A stretch of DNA of 64,000 nucleotides. It comes from an uncultured Planctomycetia bacterium. GTDB taxonomy: Bacteria > Omnitrophota > Gorgyraeia > Tantalellales > Tantalellaceae. The notes under the pieces were generated by a model. The model was not told where the DNA came from. It did not search any database and worked only from the letters and a program-made list of their open reading frames with translations. The translations under genes and the position numbers were made by a program. The stretch is from contig CAZMEZ010000004.1 in the NCBI GenBank assembly GCA_964565425.1, positions 24,907 through 88,906 on the forward strand, read 5' to 3'. This document shows positions 3,523 to 59,929 of this stretch, piece by piece. The first letter of the stretch is position 1. The number at the start of each line of letters is the position of its first letter.

Positions 3523-3542
3523 AACCGGAAAGGACGCATGTT

Positions 3543-17054: not shown

Positions 17055-17060
17055 AGGGGA

Positions 17061-18723: not shown

Positions 18724-18727
18724 CGTT

Positions 18728-20613: not shown

Positions 20614-20629
20614 CGGGCAAGGGCGTATC

Positions 20630-21253
20630 GTGAATAAGAGGGTCTCTATAATAGATTACGGGATGGGAAACCTGAAGTCCATAGCGAACGCGCTTACCGC
20701 CGTCGGGGCGGACGTAAAGGTGGCGGTATCCCCGAATGATCTTGGAGCGGCAGCCCGCATCGTGCTTCCGGGAGTTGGGGCTTTCGGCGACGGGATGAGC
20801 AGCCTTAAAGAACGCGGTTGGATGGAGGCACTGAACGAAGAGGTCATGATAAAGAAAAAAACTTTTCTCGGCGTTTGTCTCGGGATGCAGCTCCTGGCGT
20901 CGGCAAGTACGGAGCACGGGGAGCATGAAGGATTCGGGTGGATATCCGGCAGGGTGGACAAGATAAGTTCGGCCGGCGTACGAGTTCCCCATATAGGGTG
21001 GAATGACGTCAGGCTGGTCAAGAGAGAAGGGCTTTACTCGGGGATAGACGATCCACAGGCATTCTATTTCGTTCATAGTTATGTGTTCCGTCCGGATGAT
21101 CCCTCCGTTGTCAGCGGGGTATGTTCCTACGGAACGGATTTTGCGGCCAGCATAGAAAAAGAGAACATATATGCCACGCAGTTTCACCCGGAAAAAAGCC
21201 ATAAGAAGGGGCTGGCGGTATTGAAGAACTTCCTGGAGGCGCGGGGATGCTGA
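20630..21253 (+). CDS. hisH: glutamine amidotransferase, HisH paralogue (WbuY-type, glycan amidation)
   Basis: IIDYGMGNLKSIANAL, nucleophile elbow GVCLGMQLL, and C-terminal FHPEKS. Confidence 0.85.
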   Translation: MNKRVSIIDYGMGNLKSIANALTAVGADVKVAVSPNDLGAAARIVLPGVGAFGDGMSSLKERGWMEALNEEVMIKKKTFLGVCLGMQLLASASTEHGEHEGFGWISGRVDKISSAGVRVPHIGWNDVRLVKREGLYSGIDDPQAFYFVHSYVFRPDDPSVVSGVCSYGTDFAASIEKENIYATQFHPEKSHKKGLAVLKNFLEARGC

Positions 21254-22035
21254 AGAAAAGACTTATACCGGTATTGCTCCTGCAGAACGGCCTGTTGGTA
21301 AGGAGCGAGCTTTTCAAGATACACCAGATAATCGGGAACCCGATACACGAGGTGCAGAGGTTCAACGAATGGAACGTGGATGAACTGGTATATCTGGATA
21401 TCACTAAAGACGACAACTATGATCTAAGGAGAAGCGACGGCAAGGTGAAAGGCCTGGGCGACCCTTTAAGCATTCTCGACGCGGTGAGCGATACCTGTTT
21501 TATGCCGCTCACGTGGGGAGGGCGCATCCGCAGGGTCGAGGACATGAGAACGTTCATCAGCCACGGCGCGGATAAAGTGACGATCAATACGGCGGCCGTG
21601 AAGACCCCCGGTCTTATCACGCGGGGAGCCAGGACTTTCGGCAGCCAGGCGATAGTCGTCAGTATAGATGTCCTGCGTCATGCTGGCGGCAAAACGGAGG
21701 TATTCATAGAAGGCGGACGGACTCCAACGGGCAAGAGACCCGAGGGATGGGCCAAGGAAGCGGAAGACCGTGGCGCGGGAGAGATACTCCTGCAGTCGAT
21801 CGACCGTGACGGCACGGGAGAAGGTTATGATCTCGAGCTTATCGAGGCGGTATCTTCGGCCGTTACCATACCCGTGATCGCGTGTAGCGGGGTCGGGGTT
21901 TACGAACATTACCCGCAGGCCGTCAAGGCGGGAGCGTCAGCCGTAGCGGCCGCGAACATATGGCATTTTAAGGAATTGTCCGATAAGGGGGGCAAACGCG
22001 CCCTGGCGCGCGCCCAGGTCGAAATACGCACTTAA
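21247..22035 (+). CDS. hisF: cyclase-subunit HisF paralogue (WbuZ-type)
   Basis: KRLIPVLLLQNGLLVRS start and a (beta/alpha)8 HisF-like sequence. It overlaps the hisH paralogue. Confidence 0.85.
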   Translation: MLKKRLIPVLLLQNGLLVRSELFKIHQIIGNPIHEVQRFNEWNVDELVYLDITKDDNYDLRRSDGKVKGLGDPLSILDAVSDTCFMPLTWGGRIRRVEDMRTFISHGADKVTINTAAVKTPGLITRGARTFGSQAIVVSIDVLRHAGGKTEVFIEGGRTPTGKRPEGWAKEAEDRGAGEILLQSIDRDGTGEGYDLELIEAVSSAVTIPVIACSGVGVYEHYPQAVKAGASAVAAANIWHFKELSDKGGKRALARAQVEIRT

Positions 22036-22049
22036 CATAGGAGAAGTAT

Positions 22050-23249
22050 ATGTCGGTCCGGTATTGCAGCAAATGTGTCTATCCGGCTATAGCGGCTACG
22101 CCGCTCACTTTCGACGACGACGGCGTGTGTTCCGGATGCCGGGTTTCCGGTCAAAAGGACACCATCGACTGGGAAAAAAGAGGCAGGATGCTGAAGGATC
22201 TGGCGGACGGGTACAAGACGGGAAGTAACTATGATATCGTCATACCCGTCAGCGGCGGCAAGGACAGTTATTTCCAGGCCCATTATGCGGTGAAAGAACT
22301 GGGCCTTAAACCTCTTCTCGTGACCTATCACGGGAACAATTATCTCCCGGAAGGAGAGTACAACCTTTTCAGGATGAGGGAGGTCTTTGACTGTGACCAC
22401 ATAATTGTGAGGCCGAGTGTTGAAACGCTGGTCAAGATGAACCGCATAGGGTTCAAGCTCCAGGGCGACATGAACTGGCACGCGCATTGTGGCATATTCA
22501 CCGTGCCTATACAGATCGCCGTTAGATACAAAGTGCCGCTGATGATGTGGGGGGAGCACGGGTTCATGGACCTGGGGGGGATGTATTCGCACAATGATTT
22601 CGTGGAGTTCACGGCGAAATTCCGGCTTGAACACGCGCTGAGAGGATACGACTGGTACGATTTTACGGACGAAGGCCTTGAAAAACTGGGCAGGCCCGAG
22701 ATCAAGGAGGGGCTGACCGCGCGGGACCTTTTGTGGGCGCGGTACCCGGGCGACGACGAGATAGACGAGGTAGGGGTGCGCGGTATATACCTCGGTAACT
22801 ACGCGCATTGGGACGCGAACCGCCATTCCCGCATGGTAATGGAAAAATACGGTTGGAAACCGGCACAGAGAGAGTTCGAACGCACCTACAGGAAGATATC
22901 CAACCTTGACGACATGCACGAGAACGGTATCCACGATTATCTCAAATTCGTGAAATTCGGGTATGGCCGGGGCACCGACCATTCGTGCAAGGATATCCGC
23001 GCGGGCATAATGACGCGCGGGCAGGCCGTAGAAATGGTCAGGAAATACGATCACGTCAAGCCCAGGTTCGATCTGGACAGGTGGCTGAAATATGTGGACA
23101 TGACCGAAGAGGAATTCGACCATATCTGCGACACTTTCAGGGACGGACGTGTGTGGCGACAGGAAAAGGGACAATGGGTAAAAGATAACGTCTGGGGGGA
23201 ACCGTCCGCGTACGGACCGGTACACGCGACGGGTTCTTTGGTGAAATGA
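22050..23249 (+). CDS. N-acetyl sugar amidotransferase (PP-loop; WbuX/PseA-like)
   Basis: N-terminal Zn ribbon CSKC...CSGC and the PP-loop IPVSGGKDS. Confidence 0.85.
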   Translation: MSVRYCSKCVYPAIAATPLTFDDDGVCSGCRVSGQKDTIDWEKRGRMLKDLADGYKTGSNYDIVIPVSGGKDSYFQAHYAVKELGLKPLLVTYHGNNYLPEGEYNLFRMREVFDCDHIIVRPSVETLVKMNRIGFKLQGDMNWHAHCGIFTVPIQIAVRYKVPLMMWGEHGFMDLGGMYSHNDFVEFTAKFRLEHALRGYDWYDFTDEGLEKLGRPEIKEGLTARDLLWARYPGDDEIDEVGVRGIYLGNYAHWDANRHSRMVMEKYGWKPAQREFERTYRKISNLDDMHENGIHDYLKFVKFGYGRGTDHSCKDIRAGIMTRGQAVEMVRKYDHVKPRFDLDRWLKYVDMTEEEFDHICDTFRDGRVWRQEKGQWVKDNVWGEPSAYGPVHATGSLVK

Positions 23250-23273
23250 CCATATTAATAAAGGCCGAAAAGT

Positions 23274-24431
23274 ATGGATAAAACACGCAAGTTGTACGAG
23301 AAGGCCAGGAAATTGATGCCGGAGAGAAACAGGTTCCTTTCCGAAGAACCGGAGCTGCGTTTCCCGGACATCTGGCCCGTTTATTACAAAGGGGCCAGGG
23401 GGTGCGAGATAAGGGATCTCGACGACAGGCGATATGTCGATATGAGCTGCATGAACACGGGTTCATGTATCCTGGGGTACTCGGACGAGGATGTCGACGG
23501 CGCCGTGAAGGCCGTTATAGAAAAGGGATCGATGTCGACGCTTAATTGCCCCGAAGAAGTGGAGCTTGCCGAGCTTTTGTGTGGAATACATCCATGGGCC
23601 GACAGGGTCGTTTTCACCGGCGTCGAGAAAGAAGCCGCGCGCATGGCGGCCGACGCGGCAAGGGTAAAGACTGGCAGGGACACCGTCCTTTTCTGCGGTC
23701 GCCGGGACAAAGGTCCCTCCTTCGCGTATAACGATATCGAAGGTTTTCTTGAGGCGGCCGACAAGAACAAAGACAGGATAGCCGCGGTGGTGATGGAACC
23801 CGCGCGGGACCGCATGCCCGTAAAGAATTTCCTCGAGATCATAAGGGAAAGAACGCAGAAAGAGGGTACGGTCCTTATTTTCGACGAGACAGTGTCCGGG
23901 TGGCGTCTTAACCTGGGCGGGGCCCACATGGGGTTCGGCGTAAAACCCGACATGGCGATATTCTCAAAAAGCACGGGTAACGGTTATTCTGTTTCGGCGG
24001 TAATAGGAACCACGGAAGCGATGGACGGTTTTGGGGGAGCCGCTTGTCCGCCGGAAAGGATAGGGGCCGCGGCCGCGATAACGGCCATAAGAAAGATGCG
24101 AAAACATAACGTCGCGGCGCACCTGGTGGAAGCCGGAAAAACGGTCAGGGAGGGATGGAGGAAGGCGGCGGAGAGACAGGGGCTGAAAATAGAGGTAAGG
24201 GGTATTCCGCCTTTAAGCTGGTTTTCATTCTGCTATGACGGCCCCCTTGCGCCGGAATCTCTTTTTGCCCAGTTCATGCTTAAAGAGGGGTTTCTGGCCG
24301 TTAACATGTTCTGCGCTTCGTACGCGCACAAGAAAGAGGACGTGGAAAAGTATTTAAAGGCTTCGGAAGGGTCTTTCGGGGCCATAGCGAGGGCAATAGA
24401 GGAAGGGAACCCGGCTAAATACATGAAGTAG
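23274..24431 (+). CDS. class-III aminotransferase (glutamate-1-semialdehyde aminomutase-like)
   Basis: 385 aa with a class-III fold pattern. FDETVSGWR and IFSKSTGNGY form the PLP-Lys context. Confidence 0.65.
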   Translation: MDKTRKLYEKARKLMPERNRFLSEEPELRFPDIWPVYYKGARGCEIRDLDDRRYVDMSCMNTGSCILGYSDEDVDGAVKAVIEKGSMSTLNCPEEVELAELLCGIHPWADRVVFTGVEKEAARMAADAARVKTGRDTVLFCGRRDKGPSFAYNDIEGFLEAADKNKDRIAAVVMEPARDRMPVKNFLEIIRERTQKEGTVLIFDETVSGWRLNLGGAHMGFGVKPDMAIFSKSTGNGYSVSAVIGTTEAMDGFGGAACPPERIGAAAAITAIRKMRKHNVAAHLVEAGKTVREGWRKAAERQGLKIEVRGIPPLSWFSFCYDGPLAPESLFAQFMLKEGFLAVNMFCASYAHKKEDVEKYLKASEGSFGAIARAIEEGNPAKYMK

Positions 24432-24484
24432 GCGGGGTCCACTGCAGGACAAGGGAGCCGCTGAAGCCGCGGGAAAGAGGCGAT

Positions 24485-25243
24485 ATGCGCGCAGTGAAAA
24501 TAATTTTTCTTGGGACCAACGGATGGTACACGACTGAGACGGGGAATACCACGTGTGTTTTCATGGAAACGAAGGATAACTATATAGTCCTCGACGCGGG
24601 GAACGGCATTTACCGGCTTGACGAGTATGTGAAGAGCGTCGATAAACCGATCTACGTTTTCCTGAGCCATTTCCACCTGGACCATATAAGCGGGCTTCAC
24701 ATCCTGGCCAAGTTCAGATTTCCCCAGGGCATGACCATATGCGGGCACAGGGGAACAAGGGAGATCCTTGATGGTATCATGCGGCAACCGTTCACGGTCC
24801 CGCTCGAAGATATTCCTTTCAAGATCGAGGTAAAGGAAATCGAAGAAGGGGTCGCCTCGGCCTTTCCGTTCCACGTTGAGGCGCGAGAGGTCCCGCATTC
24901 CTCGATGTGCCTGGCCTACAGGTTCGAAGTAGAGGGCAGGATAGTGACGTATTGCACCGACGCGGGGTATTGCCGGGCGGCGGTAGAGTTGGCCCGGGAC
25001 TCGAACGTGCTCATAGCCGAGTGCACGTTGAAGCCCGGCGAGAAGAACGAGAAATGGCCGCATCTTAATCCCGCGGACTCCGCGAGGATCGCGCAAGAAG
25101 CGGGAGCGGAGAAACTCGTGCTCATGCATTTTGACGCCGACAATTACCGGAGCATTTATGACAGGGAAAAAGCCCAGGCCGTGGCGGAGAAGGTTTTTAA
25201 GAACACAACGGCTGCCAGGGACGGAATGGTGGTGGAGCTGTAG
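24485..25243 (+). CDS. MBL-fold metallo-hydrolase
   Basis: SHFHLDH motif and a downstream His/Asp pattern. Confidence 0.75.
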   Translation: MRAVKIIFLGTNGWYTTETGNTTCVFMETKDNYIVLDAGNGIYRLDEYVKSVDKPIYVFLSHFHLDHISGLHILAKFRFPQGMTICGHRGTREILDGIMRQPFTVPLEDIPFKIEVKEIEEGVASAFPFHVEAREVPHSSMCLAYRFEVEGRIVTYCTDAGYCRAAVELARDSNVLIAECTLKPGEKNEKWPHLNPADSARIAQEAGAEKLVLMHFDADNYRSIYDREKAQAVAEKVFKNTTAARDGMVVEL

Positions 25244-25586
25244 AGAGATCGCATAGCGCAAAGCGCATAGCGGTTCGCGATGTGCGGTTAGCGGGTCGAG
25301 AAAGTAAATAATAAGTGATACGTGATACGCAGGCTAGAGGCACGAGGCTAGAGGCACGAGGCTAGAGGCAAGAGGCAAGAGGCAAGAGGCGAAAGAAAGG
25401 CGTTGATTACGAAGATTAAGACGCAGACGATGATCTTAGATTACGAAGATCTGATCCCCGTAATCTATTTAAATCTTCGTAATCAAATTATATAGTACGC
25501 GTTATCTGTGATCATCTGTTTTAAATCTGTGCTCATCCGTGTTTTAAGGAAAAACGAACGACGAACGGCGAACAACGGACGACGAT
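25241..25586 (+). repeat. mosaic spacer A: heptamer arrays, a core element of about 100 bp, and a CGAACGA array
   Basis: The order is cgcatag words, gtgatac words, then a 14-mer/7-mer tandem at 25332-25389 (GAGG every 7 nt, 8 times). The core follows at 25389-25487, including a perfect 12-bp hairpin (gattacgaagat 25439-25450 / atcttcgtaatc 25473-25484). The spacer ends with gaacgac gaacggc gaacaac ggacgac. Confidence 0.9.
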
Positions 25587-27050
25587 ATGAAAAATAACAT
25601 GCGGGTTTATATAGTTACCGAAGGGGGCGAGGGTATCGGTTACGGACACGTAACGAGGTGCCTCTCGCTTTGCCAGGCTTTTGAAGGGGAGGGCATCTCT
25701 CCGATATTCATAATAAACGGGGATAAAAGCATTAAGAATATCATCGGCGGAAGGGACTGCGTGACGTTCAACTGGCTTAAAGAGGGGGAAAAGCTGCTGA
25801 AGATCATCGATGGTTCGGATATAACGATAATAGATTCCTATAAAGCGAGCCGCGCCATCTACGCGAAAATATCGGAACTGGCGCTTTTACCGGTCTTTCT
25901 GGACGATTACAAGAGAATAGACTATCCGGAAGGGGTCGTGCTGAACGGAGGCATCCACGCCGAAAGCCTTGCGTACCCCAGGAAAAGGGGGAAGACATAT
26001 CTTCTCGGCGCGAAATACGCTCTTTTGAGAAAAGACTACTGGAAGACCTCCGGCAAGAAGATCAGGAAGAGCGTTGAAAAGATACTCGTTACGTTCGGGG
26101 GGAGCGATACGGATAACTTTACCGCCGAGGTTCTTAAAGCGCTGGACGAGGCGTATCCGGAGATATCAAGAACGGCGGTTATAGGAAAGGCGTCCGGTAC
26201 GTCGCCCGTGGCAGGAAGGGCCGCGGGAGGCGGTACGCGGTTCGTTTTTGACGCGGATGCCGCGGAGATGAAGAAGGTCATGATGGAGGCCGATATCGCT
26301 GTCGCCGCCGCCGGACAAACCACATATGAACTTGCGGCGGTAGGTGTGCCCACGGTCGCGGTCTGCGTTGCCCCGAACCAGAAAATGAACCTTGTGAACT
26401 GGATGGAAAAAGGGTTTCGCGGCTGCGCGCTTGCCGGTCGCAGGATCCCGAAGGAGAAGGTCCTCGAAGGCGTGGAGTATTTTCTGCCTTACAAGAATAG
26501 AAGCGAATTTTATAAGAGCACCAGAGATCTTGTTTCCGCCGACGGGGCGCGCAACGCCGTAAAAGAACTGCTTGGCGCGTACGGTTCCGTTAAATTGAGA
26601 GGGGTCAAAAGGGACGATTGCCGTGATCTCTGGATATGGCGAAACCATCCCAGGGCGAGAAAATGGAGTTTTTGCCATGACGCGATAAGTTATCCCGACC
26701 ACGAAAAGTGGTTCGCCAAAAAGCTCGGGGATAGAAGGGCGCGGATATATATCGCTGAAGACATCCGCGGCCGAAAGATCGGGCAGGCGCGTTTTGAGGT
26801 GTTTCCCTCGAGCGCGATGATCAGCGTGAACCTGAACCCCATGTTCTACGGCAGGGGGTTCGGTTCAAAGGTAATAGAGGGCGCGACCCGGACCTTTCTC
26901 GAAGAAAGGCCGCAGGTAAAAGAGATAACGGCCGAGGTAAACGCGGCGAACATAGCGTCGATCAAGGCCTTTAAAAGAGCCGGATACGAGTTCTCGTCAA
27001 AGGAGCGGAAAGCCGGCGAGAACGCCGATATCTTCAAGTACAGGACCTAA
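25587..27050 (+). CDS. pseG: PseG-PseH fusion: UDP-2,4-diacetamido-2,4,6-trideoxy-beta-L-altropyranose hydrolase fused to a GNAT N-acetyltransferase
   Basis: N-terminal MRVYIVTEGGEGIGYGHVTRCLSLCQAF (PseG type) and a GT-B-like core. From about aa 335 (nt about 26589) a GNAT domain begins (RGRKIGQ...GRGFGSKVIE). Confidence 0.7.
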   Translation: MKNNMRVYIVTEGGEGIGYGHVTRCLSLCQAFEGEGISPIFIINGDKSIKNIIGGRDCVTFNWLKEGEKLLKIIDGSDITIIDSYKASRAIYAKISELALLPVFLDDYKRIDYPEGVVLNGGIHAESLAYPRKRGKTYLLGAKYALLRKDYWKTSGKKIRKSVEKILVTFGGSDTDNFTAEVLKALDEAYPEISRTAVIGKASGTSPVAGRAAGGGTRFVFDADAAEMKKVMMEADIAVAAAGQTTYELAAVGVPTVAVCVAPNQKMNLVNWMEKGFRGCALAGRRIPKEKVLEGVEYFLPYKNRSEFYKSTRDLVSADGARNAVKELLGAYGSVKLRGVKRDDCRDLWIWRNHPRARKWSFCHDAISYPDHEKWFAKKLGDRRARIYIAEDIRGRKIGQARFEVFPSSAMISVNLNPMFYGRGFGSKVIEGATRTFLEERPQVKEITAEVNAANIASIKAFKRAGYEFSSKERKAGENADIFKYRT

Positions 27051-27051
27051 A

Positions 27052-28077
27052 ATGGCGAAGAAGAAAAGATCCAACAGGTGTTTGATGGTAGCGGAGGTGT
27101 CAGCCAACCACGGCCGGAACTTAAGGCAGGCTGTGGCCATGATAAGGAAGGCGAAGGAATGCGGCGCCGACGCGGTAAAGTTCCAGACGTACACTCCGGA
27201 TACGCTTACGATCGATTCGGACAGGAGTTTCTTCAGGGTCAAACACCCCAAATGGAAGGGGCAGACGCTTTACCAGCTTTACGGGAAGGCATATACGCCC
27301 TGGGAATGGTTCGCGAAACTCAAAAAAACGGCGGATTCCGAAGGTATCATGTTCTTCTCGACCGCTTTTGACAGGACGTCGGTCGATCTTCTCGAGAAGC
27401 TCAATGTGCCCGTTCATAAAATAGCTTCGTTCGAGCTTGTCGACCTGCCGCTCATCGAGTACGCGGCAAAGACCGGTAAACCCCTGATCATGTCCACGGG
27501 CATGGCGACGAAGGCGGAGATAAAAGAAGCCGTGGATGTCGCGAGAAAGGCCGGGGCTAAGGATATAACGCTTTTAAAATGCGTGTCGAGTTATCCGGCG
27601 GAACCGCGCGAAATGAATCTCCTGACCCTGCGGGATATGAAGGAGAGTTTCGGCTGCCCGGTCGGCCTTTCGGACCACAGCATGGGGATAGGCGCATCGA
27701 TAGCCGCGGTTGCCCTGGGGGCGACCGTGATAGAGAAGCATTTTACCTTATCAAGGAAGATAAGGACGCCGGACAGCTTCTTCTCGATCGAGCCGGATGA
27801 GCTGGAAAGGCTCATCGTGAACGCGAGAATAGCGGAGAAGGCCGTGGGGAAGGTCCGTTACGGCCTTACCGGGGACGAAAAGAAGAGCAAGGCGTTCAGG
27901 CGGTCGCTTTTCGCGGTCAAGGATATAAAGAAAGGAGAAGTTCTCAACGCCGAGAACGTGAGGTCCGTGAGGCCCGCGAACGGCCTGAGCCCCAAATACG
28001 CGGACGCGGTTTACGGCAAAAAGGCGAAAAAAGGCATCAAAAAAGGCACCCCGCTGGGGTGGGAGCATATATCGTGA
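27052..28077 (+). CDS. pseI: pseudaminic acid synthase (NeuB family)
   Basis: MVAEVSANHGRNLRQAVAMIRKAKECGADAVKFQTY, GLSDHS, and a C-terminal SAF domain. Confidence 0.85.
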   Translation: MAKKKRSNRCLMVAEVSANHGRNLRQAVAMIRKAKECGADAVKFQTYTPDTLTIDSDRSFFRVKHPKWKGQTLYQLYGKAYTPWEWFAKLKKTADSEGIMFFSTAFDRTSVDLLEKLNVPVHKIASFELVDLPLIEYAAKTGKPLIMSTGMATKAEIKEAVDVARKAGAKDITLLKCVSSYPAEPREMNLLTLRDMKESFGCPVGLSDHSMGIGASIAAVALGATVIEKHFTLSRKIRTPDSFFSIEPDELERLIVNARIAEKAVGKVRYGLTGDEKKSKAFRRSLFAVKDIKKGEVLNAENVRSVRPANGLSPKYADAVYGKKAKKGIKKGTPLGWEHIS

Positions 28078-28817
28078 AGGAACTCATCAGAAATTGCCAG
28101 CATTACGGGTCCCATCATACCTTTCTTTTGAGGGGGCGGGACGGTAACGTGGTCGGGGTCGAGAAAAAGACCTTCAGCGAGACCGGGATCCGGGACCTGG
28201 ACCGTGAGGCGGAAGGACTGGAATGGTACTGCCGCCTGATCGGCAGGGACGCGTCCGAGATGATCGGTTCTTTCGAAAAGGCCGCCGGGTACGGACGGCT
28301 GGAAATAAAATACCACGACGGCGCGGTTATAACGACGCCCGCCAGTCCCGATCTTGTCAAAGGAAAGCTGAGGGCGGCGGTCGAGCATTATCTCGAGGTA
28401 TTCGGCAGGGACTCTTTCAGGTTCTCGCACGGTGATTATTTTCTCGGGAACATAGTCTACACGGGCGACAGGGTCGCCTGGGTGATAGATTGGGAACACT
28501 TCAACGACAAGCTTCCCGCGGGATATGACGCGCTGAATTGCGTAACCCAGGTATTTCTTTCCGCGCACGGGAAGAAAAGGCGGTATTCGAGGGAAAGCGT
28601 TGAATCGGCCCGCGCTCTTATCGCGAAAATATCCGAAAGAGCGGCTTTGCCGGAAGAGGCGATCTCCTCCCCGGCGCTCTGGTGCAGGAACACGGCTGCC
28701 GAACGCAGTGATGTCTGGGGAGGCCAGCACGGCAAACTTCCTCATCTTGATTATCCGCGCGAGACCTGCGCGGAGGTGGACAGGATAATAGGGGTCATGA
28801 ACGGAGGCGGGATATGA
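28074..28817 (+). CDS. APH/choline-kinase-fold phosphotransferase
   Basis: Brenner-type motif FSHGDYFLGNIVY followed by VIDWEHF. The GTGA overlaps the pseI stop. The track ORF starts at 28059. Confidence 0.5.
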   Translation: MKELIRNCQHYGSHHTFLLRGRDGNVVGVEKKTFSETGIRDLDREAEGLEWYCRLIGRDASEMIGSFEKAAGYGRLEIKYHDGAVITTPASPDLVKGKLRAAVEHYLEVFGRDSFRFSHGDYFLGNIVYTGDRVAWVIDWEHFNDKLPAGYDALNCVTQVFLSAHGKKRRYSRESVESARALIAKISERAALPEEAISSPALWCRNTAAERSDVWGGQHGKLPHLDYPRETCAEVDRIIGVMNGGGI

Positions 28818-29500
28818 AAAAAGAGATAGTAGCGCTCATACCGGTCAAGGGTTCGTCGGAACGGGTGAAAGCCAAGAACACGAGACCCTTCCACGACACC
28901 AGCCTGTATGAACTGAAGCTCAGGCATATGAAGGAAGTCGGGGGATTCGCGAACGTCATAGTGTCTTCCGAGAGCAAGGATATACTCAGGGCGGCGAAAA
29001 AGACGGGATTTGACACCCACCTCCGTGATCCTAAATATTCCACGAGCACGGTCCCCATGAGCGACGTCTATTCATATATCGCCTCCGAGATAAAGGGGGA
29101 GCATATCGCGTGGGTCAACGTTACTAACCCGCTGGCGGGGCCGGAAGTATATGAAAAAGCCATAGAAAAATATAATTCCATGGGCCCCGGGCATGACTGT
29201 CTTTTGAGCGTTTCGGAGATGAAAGAATACCTTTTCCATGACGGCAGGCCTGTCAATTTCCGTCCCAACCCGTGGCCGAGATCCCAGGACCTCCAGGACG
29301 TGTATGCCATGTCCTTCATAATAAACATCCTCAGGAGAGAGGACATGGTCAGGTGGGGTTCGTGCGTCGGCGAGAAGCCGTATTTCTTCTGCCTGGACAG
29401 GGTTACCTCGAAGGACGTGGATTTTCAGGAGGATTTCGATTTTTGCGAGACGATCTATAAGAAGCGCTGTGAAGCCGTGAAACAGGAGAGTTGCAGGTGA
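28814..29500 (+). CDS. pseF: acylneuraminate/pseudaminate cytidylyltransferase
   Basis: IVALIPVKGSSERVKAKNTRPF N-terminal CMP-NeuAc-synthetase motif. The ATGA overlaps the upstream gene. Confidence 0.75.
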   Translation: MKKEIVALIPVKGSSERVKAKNTRPFHDTSLYELKLRHMKEVGGFANVIVSSESKDILRAAKKTGFDTHLRDPKYSTSTVPMSDVYSYIASEIKGEHIAWVNVTNPLAGPEVYEKAIEKYNSMGPGHDCLLSVSEMKEYLFHDGRPVNFRPNPWPRSQDLQDVYAMSFIINILRREDMVRWGSCVGEKPYFFCLDRVTSKDVDFQEDFDFCETIYKKRCEAVKQESCR

Positions 29501-30996
29501 CGGAAATTTTGAATTTCTCACATGACCGTAACGCGCCCTTCGAGCGGTCCGCTGCCGAGCTGAGGGACACTATAGACGCCTTCGCCGTCCGTCCGGAGTT
29601 GAACGGGTTGTATGACCATTTCGAACGTGATTATTCGTTGCCGCGCGACGTGGTGAGGCAGCAGATAAGGAAATATCTTGAAAAGGCGTATGATTATAAG
29701 ACATGCCGGTTTTCGGAGGATCTCTCCACGCGAAAGATCGCCTATATGGCGCTTAGACACATAGCATATCTACTGTACGTGGTTTTCACGTCGAGAAAAT
29801 ATGGAAAGCCCCCCAAGCGGTACGAACTGATATGCGAATGGGTCCTCGAGGGCGAAGAGATCGACCGGCTTTCCAGGCTCATCGGCCTTTTCGGGCGGGA
29901 GAATGTTTTGATCACTACCCCGTGCCCGGTGAATAAGCCGGGCTATAATATCGAATATCGTCCCTCCCCCTCCGCGACCCAAACCCAAAAGCAAAGTTTT
30001 TATGTCCCCAGGCTTTATGACCGGGAAGAGACGCTCAGGGCCTTTTCCCGGGAGATGCGCGAACTTAAGGTTTACGCGGACCTCTCGCGCAGGACAGGAG
30101 TGAACCTTCTGCCGGTCGCGGGCCATATAGTTAACCAGTACCTGTATTATACCTCTATATTCAAGCATAACCGGGCTAAATACTGTATACAGGAACGCCA
30201 TTACCAGACAAGCGCCATAAAGAACTTCCTGTTCCGTAAATACGGGGGCAAGTGTTCCGCGGCCACGCAGAAGAATATCCACCAGATCTCCAACTGCGGG
30301 TTTTATTATGACGCCGATGCTTTTTTCTCCCTGGGCAACAGGACCGCGGAAAGGGCTCTTGATTACGGCGCCAGGATCGGGCAGGTCGTGCCCGTAGGTT
30401 CGCTCTTCATGGAGCACGCCTGGTTCAATGGCGCGAAAGACAAGGGCCGTCCGGATAAGAGATACGATATCGTCTACCTGGGGATAAATTTCGCGAGGGC
30501 CAAAGACAACCTGGACAGCTATGCCTCTTTCGTCGACGACTATTACGAGACCTTCAGGTGGCTGGCCAGACTTTCCAGGGAAAACCCGGCCCTCAAGATA
30601 GGTATCAAGCATCACGGGAGCAACCATATCGACGAAAAAGAGACGGATATCATAAAGGGCAGCAATATCGAAACAATAGACCAGAAATTGAATTCTTACG
30701 ATATTGGTTTCAGCTCAAGATGCGCCGTGACCTATTGTTCGACGATGGGATATGAGCTTATTGCCCACGGTCTGCCGGTCCTTTTCCTGGACCCGGACAG
30801 GAGGAACGTCACGTGGTTCTCCGAGAAAAGCCTGGTGGACAATTGCCGTGTCACCACTTATAGCCAGTTTGACAGGGCGATAAAGGACCTGCTCGGGGGC
30901 AAGAACGCGCGCATGGAGACCGATGATATCTGCCTTAACAGCGCGGACGTTTCGGGAAGGATATACGAATATTTCAGGAAAGAGGTGAAGATATAA
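29491..30996 (+). CDS. hypothetical protein; C-terminal half resembles GT-B CMP/CDP-dependent transferases
   Basis: No family recognised. IKHHGSNH ... VTYCSTMGYELIAHGLPVLFLD resembles the HP / S-T motifs of TagF, KpsS and sialyltransferase-like enzymes. The start could be GTG 29497. Confidence 0.3.
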   Translation: MQVTEILNFSHDRNAPFERSAAELRDTIDAFAVRPELNGLYDHFERDYSLPRDVVRQQIRKYLEKAYDYKTCRFSEDLSTRKIAYMALRHIAYLLYVVFTSRKYGKPPKRYELICEWVLEGEEIDRLSRLIGLFGRENVLITTPCPVNKPGYNIEYRPSPSATQTQKQSFYVPRLYDREETLRAFSREMRELKVYADLSRRTGVNLLPVAGHIVNQYLYYTSIFKHNRAKYCIQERHYQTSAIKNFLFRKYGGKCSAATQKNIHQISNCGFYYDADAFFSLGNRTAERALDYGARIGQVVPVGSLFMEHAWFNGAKDKGRPDKRYDIVYLGINFARAKDNLDSYASFVDDYYETFRWLARLSRENPALKIGIKHHGSNHIDEKETDIIKGSNIETIDQKLNSYDIGFSSRCAVTYCSTMGYELIAHGLPVLFLDPDRRNVTWFSEKSLVDNCRVTTYSQFDRAIKDLLGGKNARMETDDICLNSADVSGRIYEYFRKEVKI

Positions 30997-31943
30997 TGGC
31001 GATCGAAAAGATAACAAGCGGCAATATCTCCGAACTGAACGAACGCTTCGAGCGCTCGCTGGACTGTTATTTCGCGAACGGCGAATTGAAGCCCGAATTC
31101 ATAGAGCATGTCAAATGCCCGAACTGCGGTAAGGGGGAAGGGAGATCCTTCAGGCAGAAAAGGTTCAATTATGTCCGGTGCGATAGCTGCGGAATGGTCT
31201 ATGCCTCTCCGAGGTTCACGGAAAAGATAAACGAGGAGATCCATTCTCAGGACAAGTACGTCGAACACTTCAAGTGCAAGGTCATACCGTCCATCGATTA
31301 CAGGAGAAACGTTCTCGCCGGGAACAAATACCGGCAGCTCGCGGAGTTCTTTGACGGCCCCGGCAAGGTCCTGGATATAGGGTGCGGCCTGGGCGACGTG
31401 CTGAGCGTTTTCAAGGAACACGGGTGGGATTGCACGGGCATAGATTTCAACGATTTTGCCGTAAAATACGCCGACGAGCATTTCGGGGTAAAGATAATCA
31501 AGGAGAATATCTTCAATATCAGCACGGAAGAGCGGTATGACCTCATCATGCTGTGGGGCGTGCTCGAGCACGTCTACGCGCCGCATGAACTTTTGAAGAA
31601 GGCCAATTCGTTGCTGAAAAAAGGGGGGCTTCTTCTGGTCGAGGTCCCGTCGGCGGATTCCCTGCTGGTCAGGTACTGTGAGCAAACGGGAGCGGAGGCC
31701 CACAGGACGTTCGAGTCGGCGAGGCATATAATGCTTTTTTCGCGTAAGGCGCTCCTGGACATGTGCGGAAAAAACGGGTTTACATGCGAGAAATTGGTAA
31801 GTAACGGCCTGGATATAGCGACGCTCTCCAGGATGGACGGCCTTGGGATCCCCGAGGAGGAGACGGGGAAATTGCAGAAACTGCTCGACGACTCGCTGCA
31901 GGGTGATCTGCTCCGGGGGTTTTTCAGGAAAAAGCGCAAATAA
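30996..31943 (+). CDS. class I SAM-dependent methyltransferase with N-terminal Zn ribbon
   Basis: CPNCG...CDSCG followed by VLDIGCGLGDVL (motif I). Confidence 0.75.
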   Translation: MAIEKITSGNISELNERFERSLDCYFANGELKPEFIEHVKCPNCGKGEGRSFRQKRFNYVRCDSCGMVYASPRFTEKINEEIHSQDKYVEHFKCKVIPSIDYRRNVLAGNKYRQLAEFFDGPGKVLDIGCGLGDVLSVFKEHGWDCTGIDFNDFAVKYADEHFGVKIIKENIFNISTEERYDLIMLWGVLEHVYAPHELLKKANSLLKKGGLLLVEVPSADSLLVRYCEQTGAEAHRTFESARHIMLFSRKALLDMCGKNGFTCEKLVSNGLDIATLSRMDGLGIPEEETGKLQKLLDDSLQGDLLRGFFRKKRK

Positions 31944-34361: not shown

Positions 34362-36185
34362 ATGAAGAATAATAAGTTCGAGACGATTAAGAACCTGGGA
34401 TATCTGATAAAACGGAGGCCGGGAGCGCTTGCCTGGTTCACCGGTGTAATAACCCTCGCCGGTGTCCTGGAGGCCTTCGGCATAGGTCTGTTGTATCCCA
34501 TCATGAGCGTGCTGGAGGACCACGCGAAAAGAGCGGGATACGTGACGCGGGTCAATGACCTGCTGGGGACCAGCCTGACGGAAAGCGTATTCATAACCGC
34601 GCTTCTCTCGACGGCTCTTTTGCTTTTCATCCTTCGTGGCCTGTCCATAATAGGTTCGTATTACGGGCAATACCGGCTGACCGAGGGGCTGCGAATAGAT
34701 TTCCAGTCGACCATATTCACGAATGATCTGGACCAGGAATACGAATATTTCGTGAAACACAGGACAGGGGACCTGGTGCAGAAACAAATGATACACACCG
34801 AAATGGCCGGGGACGCGGTCCTGTACTCCTGCCAGATAGCCCGCAACCTTTTTACCGCCGCGTGTCTTTACGTGACGCTTTGTATCGTTTCGCTGAAAGG
34901 GGCGCTAATGCTCACGGGGATAATGGCCGTGCTGACAGTGGTAGCGCTTATAGTTTCCAAAGTGAAGATATACGCGGCTTCACAGGAACATGCCGACCTG
35001 CAGAAGAGGGCGTATTCCATCGCGGTCGAGACGATGACGGGCATAAGGCAGGTAAAGGCTTTCCTGGCCGAGCAATTCTTCTCGAAAAAATTCGGAGAAA
35101 CGATTACAAGGAAAGCCGCTATCTACAGGAAGAACGCCACCATAGGCCAGATGCCCACGCCTGTCATGCAGACGAGCGTCCTGGTGGGGGTCGTAGCGGT
35201 GCTTTTTCTCGCGTTCAGGTATAAAGGCAGCGTGAGCGGACTCCTTCCCCTGGTGGTCGTTTTCGGGGGAGGCGCTTACAGGATAATCTCTTCCGTGGCG
35301 GGACTCAACAGCAGCTTCATGCAGATAGCGCACCTCTTGCCTTCGGTGAACATAGTCGCGGACCTCTTGAAGTGGAAGCCCGTTCATGAAAACCTTGCCG
35401 GGGCGGGCCGTTTTGAAAAGGATATAGTCTTCGAGGAAGTGGAATTCTCGTACCCGAGGGAAGGGTTCAAGCTTTCCGGCATCGACCTCGAGTTCGAGAA
35501 AGGGAAATTTTACGGTATCGTGGGGTCTTCCGGCAGCGGGAAATCCACTCTGGTGGACCTTATCATAAAGTTCTATCACCCCGGGAGGGGCAGGATACTG
35601 GTCGACGGGAAGGACCTTAAGGGGATGGACGCGCGCTCCTGGCGCAAGCAGATCGGCCTCATAAGCCAGGAGACGTTCATATTTAACGGGACAATAGAGG
35701 AGAACATATCTTTCGCGGTGGACGAGGCGGAAAAGGATACAGGCAGGATAGAGGCAGCCGCGAGGACCGCCGACCTGCACGACTTTATTAAAAGCCTGCC
35801 GGAAGGTTACGGGACGATTGTGGGAGAAAGAGGCCTCACGCTCTCCGGGGGGCAGAGGCAGCGGCTCGCGATCGCGAGGGCCGTTTACAGGGATCCCGAG
35901 ATATACATATTCGACGAGGCGACGAGTTCCCTGGACACGCATTCGGAGAAAAGGATACAAGGGGCCATAGAAGAACTGAGCCGGTCAAAGACCGTCATAG
36001 CGGTGGCCCACAGGTTGTCCACGGTGGTCCATGCCGACGAGATCATCGCGATGAAGGACGGCAGGATAATGGAAAAAGGCCCTCATTCGGATCTGATGGA
36101 AAGGGAAGGTTTCTACGCCGGGCTATACACGCACCAATACTCCGCGGAACGGAGACAGAAGGAAGGGGACGCGGTAAGCTCTTAA
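34362..36185 (+). CDS. ABC transporter, fused permease/ATPase (MsbA/PglK-like exporter)
   Basis: Six-TM N-terminal half, Walker A GSSGSGKST, signature LSGGQRQR, Walker B IYIFDEATS. Confidence 0.85.
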   Translation: MKNNKFETIKNLGYLIKRRPGALAWFTGVITLAGVLEAFGIGLLYPIMSVLEDHAKRAGYVTRVNDLLGTSLTESVFITALLSTALLLFILRGLSIIGSYYGQYRLTEGLRIDFQSTIFTNDLDQEYEYFVKHRTGDLVQKQMIHTEMAGDAVLYSCQIARNLFTAACLYVTLCIVSLKGALMLTGIMAVLTVVALIVSKVKIYAASQEHADLQKRAYSIAVETMTGIRQVKAFLAEQFFSKKFGETITRKAAIYRKNATIGQMPTPVMQTSVLVGVVAVLFLAFRYKGSVSGLLPLVVVFGGGAYRIISSVAGLNSSFMQIAHLLPSVNIVADLLKWKPVHENLAGAGRFEKDIVFEEVEFSYPREGFKLSGIDLEFEKGKFYGIVGSSGSGKSTLVDLIIKFYHPGRGRILVDGKDLKGMDARSWRKQIGLISQETFIFNGTIEENISFAVDEAEKDTGRIEAAARTADLHDFIKSLPEGYGTIVGERGLTLSGGQRQRLAIARAVYRDPEIYIFDEATSSLDTHSEKRIQGAIEELSRSKTVIAVAHRLSTVVHADEIIAMKDGRIMEKGPHSDLMEREGFYAGLYTHQYSAERRQKEGDAVSS

Positions 36186-36199: not shown

Positions 36200-37942
36200 A
36201 TGGAACGATCGGGTAAAGAACTGATAATACTTGTGGATAAGGCCGGGCTGGCGGCCGCAGGCCGTTCGCTCCTGGAAAGGTGCGATCGTGTTGCCATGAC
36301 CCCGGACGCGATACTCGCCTTAGAGGAAGAAGGTCTGTCCTTTTCCACGTTCGACGATATTTACGGGTACAGGCAGTTTCGCGAGGACAACCTAAGGATG
36401 ATGGATGAGACGGAAGACCTGTTCAGGGATCTGGACAGGAAATACAGCGCGTCTTTGGAGTATCCCCGCGCTTTTACGGGCAATATACTGTGGTTCCTGG
36501 TGTTCTTTGCCAACGCCCTTTATCTTTCGAAAGTGTGCCGGTGGGCTAAGAACAACTATACTAAGGTCCATTTGGCCGGTAGCGCTAAGTACGACAGGCC
36601 GCTCAGGATAGACCTGGATTTCTCCGAAAGGGGGCTCGCGTTCTGCGATTTTAACCGGGAACTGGCCAGCAAGGTCAGCATGCTGAGGGATGTTTTATCC
36701 CCGGATTGTTACTGGAGCGCCAATGCCCCCCAAAGGGGCGCCGGACGGCCCGTCGGTAGACAACAGCTGTTATTTTCCGCGAGGCAGACGGTCAAAAAGC
36801 CTTTAGTCAGAGCGAGAGCGTTTTTTGAAGAACATTCAGGTAAAGATAAGGATGTCATATTCGTAGTGCGGGACAGCAATGAAGTGAATTTCGTAAAAAG
36901 ACACATGGGGGATGTTGCTCTCAAGAAACCGCTCAAGAGAATGCTCGAGGACGCGTTCGAAGGGCGTTTGGAGAAGCAGGATATCGAATGCTCTTTCGAA
37001 ACAGAGATCCGGAGTTTCGCGTTGAAATGGTTCCCGGAATTCGAAAAGCGCGTCCTGGAAGCGTTCGAGGCCTATTTTGAAAAAGCGGTTCGCTGTCTCC
37101 GGGCATTTATGGACAAAGTAGAGGAAGCGTTCAAAGCGGACTCCCCGAAGGCGGTGTTCTATTCGTTTTCCCCCAACAGGGTATACGAGGACGTGCTCGC
37201 TTACGCGGCGAACGAGAGGAACATACCCGTGTTCGCTTTCTGGCATGTCGGTTCTCATGAAAAAGACAAGGATATTTACGCGAAGTACCTGGAGAGCAAT
37301 GAAAACGTGAAAATGGATGTCCTGGAGGTAAGCAAATTCTACAACCTGCATCTGGACCGGAAGAGCGGCAGGGGCAAAGGTATTTTATACTTCCCCGGGA
37401 TCTTTAATTCATACAACTACAAGGATCTCATGGTCAACGTTCCCGATAGAGCGCTTTTTGAGGTTACCAGGGACATAGTGGAGGTTGTCGGCGAGTTCGG
37501 CGCGGAGATGGATATAAAGATACACCCTAATGACGAAGAATACAATTATACGTATTTCAGCAACCTGCTGAAGGCAAAGGGGGCCGGGAACATCGGCATA
37601 CTCAGGGGATTCCCGGCGGAAAAGATAATGAAGCATTACAGTCTCTTTATATTCGATTACGCCGGGACCAGCTTGATACCGGCTGCCGGGGTTTTCGACA
37701 CGCCGGCTATATTGTATATAACCGACGATAGTGTTTTGAGGGAGAAAGCGATCCCGGACCTGGAGAGAAAGTTCCATATGGCTCGGCACAGATCCGATCT
37801 TGTGAAGCACATTAGCCTTTATGTGCAGGGAAAACTGGAAACAAAAATAACGGGTGAGCACGCTTTCCCGGCAGGGGAAGAAGCCCCTTGCGTTAAGATG
37901 GCAGGGTATGTGAAGAGCGTGATCGATACCGTAAAAACCTGA
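36200..37942 (+). CDS. hypothetical protein; possible GT-B-like transferase distantly related to 29491-30996
   Basis: No family recognised. DIKIHPND ... IFDYAGTSLIPAAGVFDTPAILYITDD has the same motif order as the other orphan. Confidence 0.25.
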   Translation: MERSGKELIILVDKAGLAAAGRSLLERCDRVAMTPDAILALEEEGLSFSTFDDIYGYRQFREDNLRMMDETEDLFRDLDRKYSASLEYPRAFTGNILWFLVFFANALYLSKVCRWAKNNYTKVHLAGSAKYDRPLRIDLDFSERGLAFCDFNRELASKVSMLRDVLSPDCYWSANAPQRGAGRPVGRQQLLFSARQTVKKPLVRARAFFEEHSGKDKDVIFVVRDSNEVNFVKRHMGDVALKKPLKRMLEDAFEGRLEKQDIECSFETEIRSFALKWFPEFEKRVLEAFEAYFEKAVRCLRAFMDKVEEAFKADSPKAVFYSFSPNRVYEDVLAYAANERNIPVFAFWHVGSHEKDKDIYAKYLESNENVKMDVLEVSKFYNLHLDRKSGRGKGILYFPGIFNSYNYKDLMVNVPDRALFEVTRDIVEVVGEFGAEMDIKIHPNDEEYNYTYFSNLLKAKGAGNIGILRGFPAEKIMKHYSLFIFDYAGTSLIPAAGVFDTPAILYITDDSVLREKAIPDLERKFHMARHRSDLVKHISLYVQGKLETKITGEHAFPAGEEAPCVKMAGYVKSVIDTVKT

Positions 37943-39649: not shown

Positions 39650-39662
39650 GGGGAAAAAGGAT

Positions 39663-41213: not shown

Positions 41214-41234
41214 TCTTACAAAGGATGATCGAAG

Positions 41235-45000: not shown

Positions 45001-45019
45001 TACCGCGAAGGATCTATCG

Positions 45020-59782: not shown

Positions 59783-59853
59783 TTGCCCTGCGCCAAGCCC
59801 CATGCTCCATACCTGTCCGCTGGACGCCGGACGCTGCCCGCTGAACTAAACCG

Positions 59854-59882
59854 TTGCATCAAATCCCCATTAGCGATAAACT
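59854..59882 (+). promoter_or_regulatory. candidate sigma-70 promoter (TTGCAT-17 nt-TAAACT)
   Basis: Located inside the IR-bracketed segment, about 50 nt upstream of ATG 59930. Confidence 0.25.
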
Positions 59883-59929
59883 ATTATAATATTGCTTATG
59901 GCACAAACATATGTAAACGGCAGGAAGAG

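Follow-up and report, generated by a model that had tools for sequence, protein, structure and literature searches.

Two predicted GT-B proteins in a large surface-sugar cluster as candidate nonulosonate transferases

Two proteins encoded in a large surface-sugar cluster, here called ORF A and ORF B, most likely attach Pse-type sugars to a lipid-linked glycan, a reading that is plausible but unproven. Taken as a whole, the best explanation—that ORF A is a candidate CMP-nonulosonate transferase and ORF B a candidate second nonulosonate transferase—has, in our estimate, a probability of roughly 0.55. ORF A is probably a CMP-nonulosonate transferase; for ORF B, a putative second nonulosonate transferase is the most likely assignment, favored over a phosphonate transferase. 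Both proteins are additional candidates of an enzyme class that is already known. The analysis observed a predicted fold, motif conservation, and gene linkage for them. The window referred to throughout is the whole 64,000-nt stretch of DNA analyzed, with positions counted from its first letter; every feature given below with start and end coordinates lies on the plus strand.

ORF A (29497..30996) encodes 499 amino acids with a predicted GT-B fold. An alternative TTG start would extend it to 29491-30996 and 501 amino acids. The GTG at 29497 is the more likely true start: it is better spaced from an AGGAGA site than the TTG at 29491, and it is the start of the NCBI protein P0001 (499 aa). Residue numbers for ORF A are counted from this GTG. 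ORF B (36200..37942) encodes 580 amino acids with a predicted GT-B fold and extra N-terminal elements, and is a candidate second cytidine-nucleotide-dependent transferase. An earlier note on this DNA described these two ORFs and quoted motifs from them, and ORFs and motifs are present as it gave them: IKHHGSNH at residues 370-377 and VTYCSTMGYELIAHGLPVLFLD at 411-432 of ORF A, IKIHPND at 439-445 and IFDYAGTSLIPAAGVFDTPAILYITDD at 484-510 of ORF B. The spacing that it gave as 40-50 residues between the His and the Ser/Thr segments measures 42 in ORF A and 48 in ORF B. Its account of the adjoining genes was also accurate. The gene that it took for a CMP-nonulosonate synthetase, a NeuA/PseF-like cytidylyltransferase of the CTP_transf_3 type (CTPtr3_2; 28814..29500), lies directly before ORF A and is translationally coupled to it through a 4-nt GTGA overlap, while the stop codon of ORF B abuts the ATG of a PEP mutase–nucleotidyltransferase fusion (TGAATG). 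Pfam and NCBIfam scans of the two window proteins returned nothing except a sub-threshold PF07388 match for ORF B (E 0.055), and PF01973 (MAF_flag10, the Maf flagellin nonulosonate transferases) was absent from both in the Pfam scan at E ≤ 0.1.

A GT-B fold is predicted for both proteins, in agreement with the fold that the earlier note had expected: the predicted models each contain two Rossmann-like α/β domains separated by an inter-domain cleft. For ORF B, the fold is supported by similarity to WaaA (12.9) and Cps3D (12.6) and by a Foldseek E of 1e-7. DSSP assignments on the AlphaFold models place the His motif after C-domain strand 2 (strand 368-371 in ORF A, 437-440 in ORF B) and the Ser/Thr in the turn that follows C-domain strand 4 (407-412 and 482-485, respectively). 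Both proteins thereby carry the conserved His motif and Ser/Thr turn where HP-motif GT-B enzymes with CMP or CDP donors have them, as the note had proposed; the Ser/Thr turn would, by this likeness, bind the donor phosphate. The shared motif pattern that it described therefore stands as a matter of position in the two models, but the sequence similarity between the proteins is at chance level. The pairwise alignment that it put forward as a check produced nothing significant and no specific relation: BLASTP gave a best E of 1.7, full-length hhalign a probability of 0.2%, and hhalign of the C-domains alone a score of 12 (P 0.33). Because all three comparisons are at chance, a common family for ORF A and ORF B is rejected.

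ORF A belongs to a large family, with 720 or more clusters at 50% identity (counted as matches with E ≤ 1e-3 to representatives at that identity), so the label "orphan" given to both proteins by the note does not hold for ORF A; it holds roughly for ORF B, with eight database matches and about 11 metagenomic loci. Among 125 members of family A, the His motif K371-H372-H373 (30607..30615), directly after C-domain strand 2, is conserved at 79-86% (K371 in 108, H372 in 99, H373 in 100), and Pro follows at position 374 in only 24 (19%). C-domain strand 4 is followed by the segment S415-T416-M-G-Y-E420 (30739..30756), a turn that leads into a helix; S415 and E420 occur without exception (125/125), and position 416 is T in 108 members and S in 14 more (T/S in 122/125).

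Among the E. coli proteins compared with ORF A by sequence, the closest are transferases of ulosonic acids. When it was compared by hhalign with 12 E. coli references, three CMP-Kdo enzymes topped the list: KpsS (score 40.2, probability 52%, E 1.4e-4), KpsC (28.7), and WaaA (28.6), with the other references at about 22 or below (WecB 15.9-25.6, NeuC about 22). Shuffled versions of KpsS (n = 80) reached a maximum of 25.5, against 40.2 for the real protein. The best alignment of the C-terminal half is to E. coli KpsS, with the IKHH and ST..E/ST.G motifs in register; the His motif aligns to IKHHP of KpsS and YKPHP of KpsC, and the Ser/Thr segment to NSTAG and SLSGFE, respectively. The KpsS/KpsC/KpsS1 group as a whole (Capsule_synth; GT107 and GT118, with the related GT99 enzyme WbbB) carries IKHH(P) and (V/T)T-x-x-S-T-x-G-x-E...HG-x-P in register with the C-domain of ORF A. 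The likeness has limits. The QxxxD motif is the source of the Asp nucleophile in the retaining double-displacement mechanism. In KpsS it lies on the first C-domain strand (LQVYND), which faces LGINFA in ORF A and sets the non-conserved G329 opposite the Q and the non-conserved A333 opposite the D; this sets ORF A apart from standard retaining Kdo/Pse transferases. Of the 125 family members, 110 have G or A at position 329, unlike the QxxxD by which GT99, GT107, and GT118 are recognized. Pfam Capsule_synth is matched by only 2 of 99 relatives of ORF A (E 0.03), the window protein having no Pfam match, and no likeness to this group turned up in the N-terminal domain. ORF B gave no signal against KpsS/KpsC-type references by hhalign. 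The donors of KpsS, KpsC, and KpsS1 are CMP-Kdo or CMP-Pse (PMC12887879), and the same source, citing Walklett 2024, gives KpsS1, a relative of KpsS, as a proven Pse transferase.

A second link leads to a genetically proven Pse/Leg transferase of Tannerella forsythia. BFO_1060 is the orthologue of Tanf_01245/TFUB4_00887, and when these genes are knocked out, the terminal Pse/Leg derivative is lost (PMC5420450). Compared through the NF046086 model and the published description, this family and ORF A share a GT-B/TagB-like character, a length of about 445-500 aa, an HP-type motif, and a gene position beside a CMP-nonulosonate biosynthesis locus and a neighboring methyltransferase gene (PMC5420450). 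ORF A is the longer protein, and its His motif is K-H-H, followed by Pro in few family members. The BFO_1060 glycosyltransferase family is matched by 6 of 99 divergent members of family A (best 7.5e-8), while NF046086 had no match at E ≤ 0.1 to the window ORF A and none to members of family B. Other divergent members match TIGR04396, "surface carbohydrate biosynthesis protein" (17/99; best 6.8e-9), or LA_1612, "Leptospira O-antigen" (TIGR04441/PF27908; 5/99), and the relative P0020 has a weak precomputed PF27908 match; for the window protein, both models are below detection. Both are families of uncharacterized proteins similar in size to ORF A; as their function is unassigned, these matches are mechanistically uninformative. 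PDB searches with ORF A, by single sequence and by profile, returned nothing. The links of ORF A to curated families thus run through relatives or stay sub-threshold, and the window protein itself has no curated match.

Gene linkage points to the same donor class. CTPtr3_2 matches PF02348 (2e-12), the PseF model (1e-16, below cut-off), and NeuA structures in the PDB (1e-7). Across the ORF A loci compared, which span Omnitrophota, Stahlbacteria, Bdellovibrio, and Proteobacteria, 10 of the 11 distinct loci have a homologue of this gene no more than 10 kb from ORF A, and in five it is directly upstream. Its identity is 51-74% in nine of the ten other loci and 33% in the remaining one (L014), a conservation that exceeds that of ORF A itself. 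On the other side, a Zn-ribbon and class I SAM methyltransferase gene (30996..31943; Methyltransf_23, 1.6e-28) has a start that overlaps the stop of ORF A (TAATG), and one 805-aa protein (P0056) is a fusion of an ORF A homologue with this Zn-ribbon/SAM-type methyltransferase. The earlier suggestion that ORF A uses a CMP-nonulosonate gains support from this dedicated NeuA/PseF-like gene, from the KpsS-like motifs above the shuffle null, and from the weak BFO_1060 links.

The window also encodes the enzymes that would supply such a donor. The Pse pathway (17743..28077) comprises PseB, PseC, a cytidylyltransferase (19870), HisH/HisF-like proteins, WbuX, a PseG–PseH fusion (25587), and PseI (27052). 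NCBIfam matches exceed the cut-off for PseB (497 bits), PseC (500), PseI (466), and the amidotransferase WbuX (318), and fall just below it for PseG (144 bits). With PseB, C, G–H, and I and two cytidylyltransferases, the pathway is complete without ORF A and ORF B, which are therefore not needed there as hydrolases. A point against the preferred reading is that the window has a single NeuB/PseI gene for two candidate transferases and two cytidylyltransferases. Downstream are a GT2 gene at 48824, a GT4 glycosyltransferase at 54615, and a WbaP-like undecaprenyl-phosphate sugar-1-phosphate transferase (59783..61342; PDB WbaP, E 8e-51), the initiating enzyme of the cluster.

Family B is small, at about 20 sequences, and a profile search and a scan of genome contigs found no new members. 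Its HP motif, K440-I-H442-P443 (37517..37528), follows C-domain strand 2; among 14 C-domains, K440 is present in all and H442 and P443 in 13, the exception (P0052) having LSL. The turn D486-Y-A-G-T490-S (37655..37672) follows strand 4, with Ser/Thr at position 490 and E474 each in 14 of 14. The HP motif lies inside the weak PF07388 match, which covers residues 415-506 and profile positions 222-314 of 316 at 13.4 bits, against a gathering threshold of 23.3, and which is seen in only one of nine family members, ORF B itself. PF07388 describes the GT38 polysialyltransferases, which share an HP motif with ORF B and use CMP-sialic acid; hhalign against E. coli NeuS was at null level. In most related loci, ORF B is preceded by a gene for an MsbA/PglK/HepA-like ABC exporter with NCBIfam and Pfam matches (34362..36185 in the window).

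The chief competing explanation for ORF B is a TagF-like phosphonyl transferase that would take CMP-HEP or a methylated derivative from the PEP mutase–nucleotidyltransferase and pass the phosphonate to a glycan hydroxyl, releasing CMP; we regard it as unlikely. The fusion next to ORF B (37943..39649; PEP mutase motif EDKRFPKVNS) opens a phosphonate block ending at 45739, and the same adjacency is found in L016 and L007, even though ORF B is only 35-41% identical among the three. Of the roughly 11 informative loci, however, only these three show it. L022 retains ORF B without the entire block (PEP mutase, Ppd, Fe-ADH, and NTase) and has a CDP-alcohol phosphotransferase directly after it; L019 holds ORF B between complete Pse and complete Leg gene sets, with no phosphonate or CDP-alcohol genes there; and Pse/Leg operons likewise surround ORF B in L018, L006, and L024, where the available sequence is free of phosphonate genes. 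These loci weaken the earlier suggestion that ORF B uses a CMP-phosphonate and, given how rarely PEP mutase adjoins the gene, make a nonulosonate the likelier substrate.

Sequence likeness to TagF offers some encouragement to the phosphonyl-transferase reading: residues 452-514 of ORF B align to TDYSS...P.I.Y..D in a TagF-like domain from E. coli K2 at an hhalign score of 27.6, above the maximum of 22.0 from 100 shuffles. In terms of the TagF/TarL/TagB phosphotransferases for CDP-glycerol or CDP-ribitol (Glyphos_transf) and the TagF-like capsule polymerases Cps3D and Bcs3, D-Y-x-G-T-S...P-x-I-x-Y-x-x-D of ORF B aligns with K2 TDYSS...PVIYYAYD. The likeness is limited to about 60 residues at an hhalign probability of 2-4%, and the surroundings of ORF B are mainly of nonulosonate genes and not of CDP-alcohol genes. 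PF04464 (Glyphos_transf) had no match at E ≤ 1 in ORF A, ORF B, or members of either family. Further, the Tannerella Pse/Leg transferase has itself been called TagB-like (PMC5420450), so likeness to TagF cannot separate the two donor types. An alternative route for transfer of the activated phosphonate is also at hand, in that an NTP transferase and a CDP-alcohol phosphotransferase (45020 and 45709; 45020..46653) close the window's own phosphonate block. No transferase has yet been assigned to activated phosphonates (PMC6697681), which leaves room for such a role, and our literature searches found no characterized phosphonate-to-glycan transferase; searches of the marine phosphonate papers (preprint and PNAS versions) gave no passage on genes for nonulosonates, glycosyltransferases, or cytidylyltransferases in the vicinity of pepM. 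More doubtful still is the broader proposal that ORF B, and possibly distant members of family A, move CMP-activated HEP- or AEP-type phosphonates onto surface glycans; the distant members would include a Pelagibacteraceae copy, 27% identical to ORF A and directly after a cytidylyltransferase–PEP mutase fusion. If phosphonyl transfer were the true function, this cluster would place phosphonate on a nonulosonate-containing glycan, and family B would be a new family of TagF-like phosphonyl transferases.

It is improbable that ORF A, ORF B, or both are GT-B nucleotide-sugar 2-epimerases or hydrolases of the NeuC/LegG/PseG type, acting in nonulosonate biosynthesis. The top Foldseek matches of ORF B are 2-epimerases, its profile matches the epimerase 4hwg (E 0.0044), and PDB searches with it gave weak matches only, to a 2-epimerase and ALG13; among 99 relatives of ORF A, three match Epimerase_2 (PF02350; best 1.8e-5) and two match wecB. 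Neither window protein has a Pfam match to PF02350, however, and the H-x-E-A-G catalytic loop of 4hwg faces F-W/Q-H-G in ORF B, where the Glu is not conserved and has Q or W opposite it. The UDP-binding His of 2-epimerases follows C-domain strand 1, whereas the conserved His of ORF A follows strand 2, as do the aligned motifs of KpsS and KpsC, and the WecB and NeuC scores of ORF A both fall below that of KpsS. A PseG/NeuC-like role is largely rejected because genuine copies sit alongside: the PseG–PseH fusion in the window and, beside ORF B in L019, a gene resembling PseG together with a true Epimerase_2 (298 bits). Least probable is a LicA/LicC/LicD-type scheme in which a small APH-like kinase (28059) would phosphorylate an alcohol, the 28814 enzyme would turn the product into a CDP-alcohol, and ORF A, as a LicD/TagF-style phosphotransferase, would pass the phospho-alcohol to the glycan: the window and L016 have the order kinase-like gene, cytidylyltransferase, ORF A, but most loci, L003, L005, L009, and L011-L014 among them, lack the kinase-like gene beside ORF A, on which ground the scheme receives low weight; the 28814 protein belongs to the NeuA/KdsB fold family, which activates free ulosonic acids, not phosphate esters; and the best matches of ORF A are KpsS, KpsC, and WaaA, with the TagF-like K2 protein at only 17.7-21.7, the null level.

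The preferred reading, with nonulosonates as the donors for both proteins, suggests the following scheme, in which we infer what the donor and the acceptor are and which catalytic roles the conserved residues play. ORF A and ORF B would be cytoplasmic or peripheral GT-B transferases of the cytidine-nucleotide-donor class, whose traits are a His motif that follows strand 2 of the C-domain and a Ser/Thr turn that follows strand 4 and binds phosphate. ORF A and its coupled cytidylyltransferase would form a pair for donor synthesis and transfer: the 28814 synthetase would make the CMP ester of a Pse-type nonulosonate, probably a tailored one, and ORF A would move the nonulosonate onto a glycan with release of CMP. 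The WbaP-like initiator and the GT2 and GT4 enzymes may build that glycan on undecaprenyl phosphate, and the PglK/MsbA-like ABC protein would export it. ORF B may be a second nonulosonate transferase serving a different linkage, acceptor, or derivative.

Pseudaminic and legionaminic acids decorate many bacterial surfaces. To our knowledge, the known Pse/Leg transferases are few and comprise the Maf proteins, KpsS1/GT118, and the Tannerella enzyme. The identity of the donor used by ORF B bears on how activated phosphonates reach cell-surface glycans. Members of family A are found in Omnitrophota, Bdellovibrio, SAR11, and further lineages, and a dedicated CMP-synthetase nearly always accompanies them. 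With its size, wide spread, and synthetase pairing, the family therefore offers many testable candidates for nonulosonate transferases, which would be useful for glycobiology and chemoenzymatic synthesis.

ORF A (29491-30996, forward strand), the candidate CMP-nonulosonate transferase, and ORF B (36200-37942, forward strand), a 580-aa candidate for a second cytidine-nucleotide-dependent transferase, are both present in the window, and their translations contain the motif strings quoted in the earlier note. The better start for A would be the GTG at 29497, since it lies ~8 nt after AGGAGA, overlaps the upstream stop (GTGA) and yields the 499-aa NCBI protein P0001; residues of A are numbered from this codon. 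A PF02348 cytidylyltransferase gene (28814-29500) directly precedes A, the ATG of a Zn-ribbon methyltransferase gene overlaps its TAA stop (TAATG), and a PEP mutase-nucleotidyltransferase fusion begins with an ATG that abuts the TGA stop of B. A had no Pfam or NCBIfam match, and B had none except a sub-threshold match of residues 415-506 to polysialyltransferase PF07388 (13.4 bits, E 0.055). The N-terminal part of each protein contains one very hydrophobic helix (A, residues 83-101, window 29743-29799, IAYMALRHIAYLLYVVFTS; B, residues 96-114, window 36485-36541, ILWFLVFFANALYLSKV), and these helices could be membrane-association elements.

The reading that best fits A is a CMP-nonulosonate transferase that works with a dedicated synthetase. 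In 10 of 11 distinct loci (from Omnitrophota, Stahlbacteria, Bdellovibrio, one gammaproteobacterium and Pelagibacteraceae) a homologue of the cytidylyltransferase at 28814 is found no more than 10 kb from A, and in five of them directly upstream of it. Identity to the window enzyme is 51-74% in nine of the ten other loci and 33% in the Pelagibacteraceae locus; A itself, at 27-51%, is less conserved than its cytidylyltransferase. The 28814 enzyme matches the PseF model weakly (1e-16), with weak matches also to NeuA structures in the PDB. P0056, an 805-aa protein from an Omnitrophota MAG, joins an A-family protein to the Zn-ribbon class I methyltransferase that is encoded after A in the window, which suggests that the two act on one substrate, although the record is partial and could be an assembly or frameshift artefact. 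Two NeuA/KdsB-fold cytidylyltransferases (19870-20613, 28814-29500) accompany a single NeuB/PseI (27052) in the window. A small APH-like (kinase-fold) ORF (28059-28817) sits between PseI and the A-coupled cytidylyltransferase; a 57% identical ORF holds the same position in locus L016 (1079-1804), where a sulfotransferase-like ORF (2489-3439) is also inserted between cytidylyltransferase and A homologue, and the APH-like ORF is missing from most other A loci.

When an alignment of 39 A sequences was compared by hhalign with 12 E. coli reference proteins, KpsS scored highest (40.2, probability 52%, E 1.4e-4), followed by KpsC (28.7) and WaaA (28.6), with the other nine at ≤22; 80 shuffled KpsS sequences reached a maximum of 25.5 (median 15.3). 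The top three are the set's three CMP-Kdo enzymes. IGIKHHGS of A aligns on LVIKHHPM of KpsS, and AVTYCSTMGYELIAHGLP aligns on AVVTINSTAGISALIHNKP of KpsS and TMTSLSGFEALLHGKH of KpsC. Transfer of Pse5Ac7Ac has been proven for KpsS1, a relative of KpsS (PMC12887879). The QxxxD segment of KpsS falls on the non-conserved G329/A333 of A, so A is probably not a standard member of the retaining families to which KpsS belongs.

The family of A is large: a word-indexed search returned 46 relatives, and an exhaustive profile search of 1.84 billion representatives gave 720 matches at E≤1e-3, including 221 at E≤1e-30. The best 150 of the 720 are mostly full-length proteins of ~480-500 aa, along with some fragments. 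Across 125 aligned sequences G301, Y401, S415 and E420 are invariant, and S197, N203, G251, Q258, D274, S302, D324, W355, P433 and C479 are at least 90% conserved; the His motif is retained less strictly (K371 in 108, H372 in 99 and H373 in 100), and a Pro follows K-H-H in only 24. Window A is below detection for all curated models. Among 99 divergent members, 17 matched TIGR04396, five TIGR04441/LA_1612 and six NF046086, the BFO_1060 family glycosyltransferase (best 7.5e-8). In strain 92A2, BFO_1060 corresponds as orthologue to Tanf_01245/TFUB4_00887; deletion of these genes costs the Tannerella forsythia O-glycan its terminal Pse or Leg (pseudaminic or legionaminic acid) derivative, and the authors of that work called them TagB/GT-B-like with an HP motif (PMC5420450).

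The motif pattern that A and B had been proposed to share is no better than chance at the sequence level, since BLASTP (best E 1.7), full-length profile-profile hhalign (probability 0.2%) and hhalign of the C-terminal domains (score 12, P 0.33) were all null, though the last does set IKHH over IKIHP. In the structural models of both, strand two of the C-terminal Rossmann domain (A 368-371, B 437-440) leads into the His motif, and strand four (A 407-412, B 482-485) into a Ser/Thr turn. For both proteins the assignment to a GT-B fold is firm, and both probably use donors of the cytidine-nucleotide class.

Family B is small: only eight proteins came out of database searches, to which a profile search contributed nothing and a metagenome scan 10 further loci. 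Among 14 C-domains, K440, E474 and a Ser or Thr at position 490 occur in all, and H442 and P443 in 13 each; in the N-terminal half, an F-Q-H349-G-G loop hardly varies. In P0052 (locus L006, 8164-9969) LSL replaces the I-H-P motif, so this protein could be a divergent paralogue or an inactive one. In hhalign comparisons with the 12 E. coli references B gave nothing above the null; residues 452-514 matched ILITDYSSIAFDFFVMNRPVIYYAYD, in the TagF-like domain of an E. coli K2 capsule protein, with a modest score of 27.6 (maximum of 100 shuffles, 22.0).

For B, a role as a second nonulosonate transferase is more probable than one as a phosphonate transferase. The latter role, though less likely, has some support: the PEP mutase-NTase gene lies directly downstream of B in the window, L016 and L007, an adjacency recurring in three diverged lineages, and in a Pelagibacteraceae single-cell genome (L014) a distant, 27% identical A homologue (2853-4274) directly follows a cytidylyltransferase (HxGH motif) fused to a PEP mutase (1496-2809; EDKVGLKKNS, the EDKxxxxxNS motif). 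However, B accompanies nonulosonate genes more consistently than it does phosphonate genes. L022 has the same Omnitrophota-type cluster, but lacks PEP mutase, Ppd, Fe-ADH and NTase, B being followed directly by a CDP-alcohol phosphotransferase and a methyltransferase. L019 (metagenome contig Ga0233425_10000458, 1-21785) has a single B homologue flanked by complete gene sets for Pse and for Leg (the latter including Epimerase_2, 298 bits, a PglD-like acetyltransferase, and a second copy each of NeuB and CTP_transf_3), with no phosphonate or CDP-alcohol genes and no A homologue within 10 kb. In L018, L006 and L024, B adjoins NeuB, WbuX and acetyltransferases; in L006, PseG-like, carbamoyltransferase, NeuB, WbuX-like, GNAT and radical SAM genes precede P0052. 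Nor does the TagF-like signal of B argue for a phosphonate donor, since the Tannerella Pse/Leg transferase is itself TagB-like. The earlier proposal of CMP-pseudaminate and/or CMP-phosphonate transferases is partly supported: a nonulosonate donor for A gains support from its KpsS and BFO_1060 links and coupled synthetase, and loci without phosphonate genes make a phosphonate donor for B less likely.

The phosphonate block itself (37943-45739) resembles the early steps of fosfomycin synthesis, comprising the PEP mutase-NTase fusion, a first B12 radical SAM gene with a weak match to the Sden_1168/PhpK-type P-methyltransferase, phosphonopyruvate decarboxylase (476 bits), Fe-ADH, another B12 radical SAM gene and an NTP transferase. 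Because it is wholly absent from the otherwise collinear L022, the block appears to have been inserted between B and the CDP-alcohol phosphotransferase. Five B12-binding radical SAM genes (31961, 39663, 43510, 49756, 51245) are unusually many for one surface-glycan cluster. The rival reading of A and B as epimerases or hydrolases draws on their best fold matches and on a few weak Epimerase_2 matches. It loses weight because the neighbouring genes include genuine PseG and Epimerase_2, and because the catalytic loop is not conserved.

Neither A nor B is needed to complete the Pse pathway of the window, which has PseB, PseC, the amidotransferase WbuX and HisH/F-like genes, a PseG-PseH fusion, PseI and a second cytidylyltransferase (19870). 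Upstream of PseB (15475-17714) lies a trio of 2-hydroxyacid dehydrogenase, cyclase-family protein and HAD phosphatase, found between SDR and ABC exporter in Omnitrophota loci, which may make an acyl or glyceroyl substituent. The cluster also holds a WbaP-like initiating transferase, GT2 and GT4 enzymes and a PglK/MsbA-like ABC exporter, which together suggest that the acceptor is a lipid-linked glycan. Towards the 3' end of the examined region, the GT4 glycosyltransferase (54615-55760) and the WbaP-like undecaprenyl-phosphate sugar-phosphate transferase (59783-61342) point to a glycan that would be Und-PP-linked.
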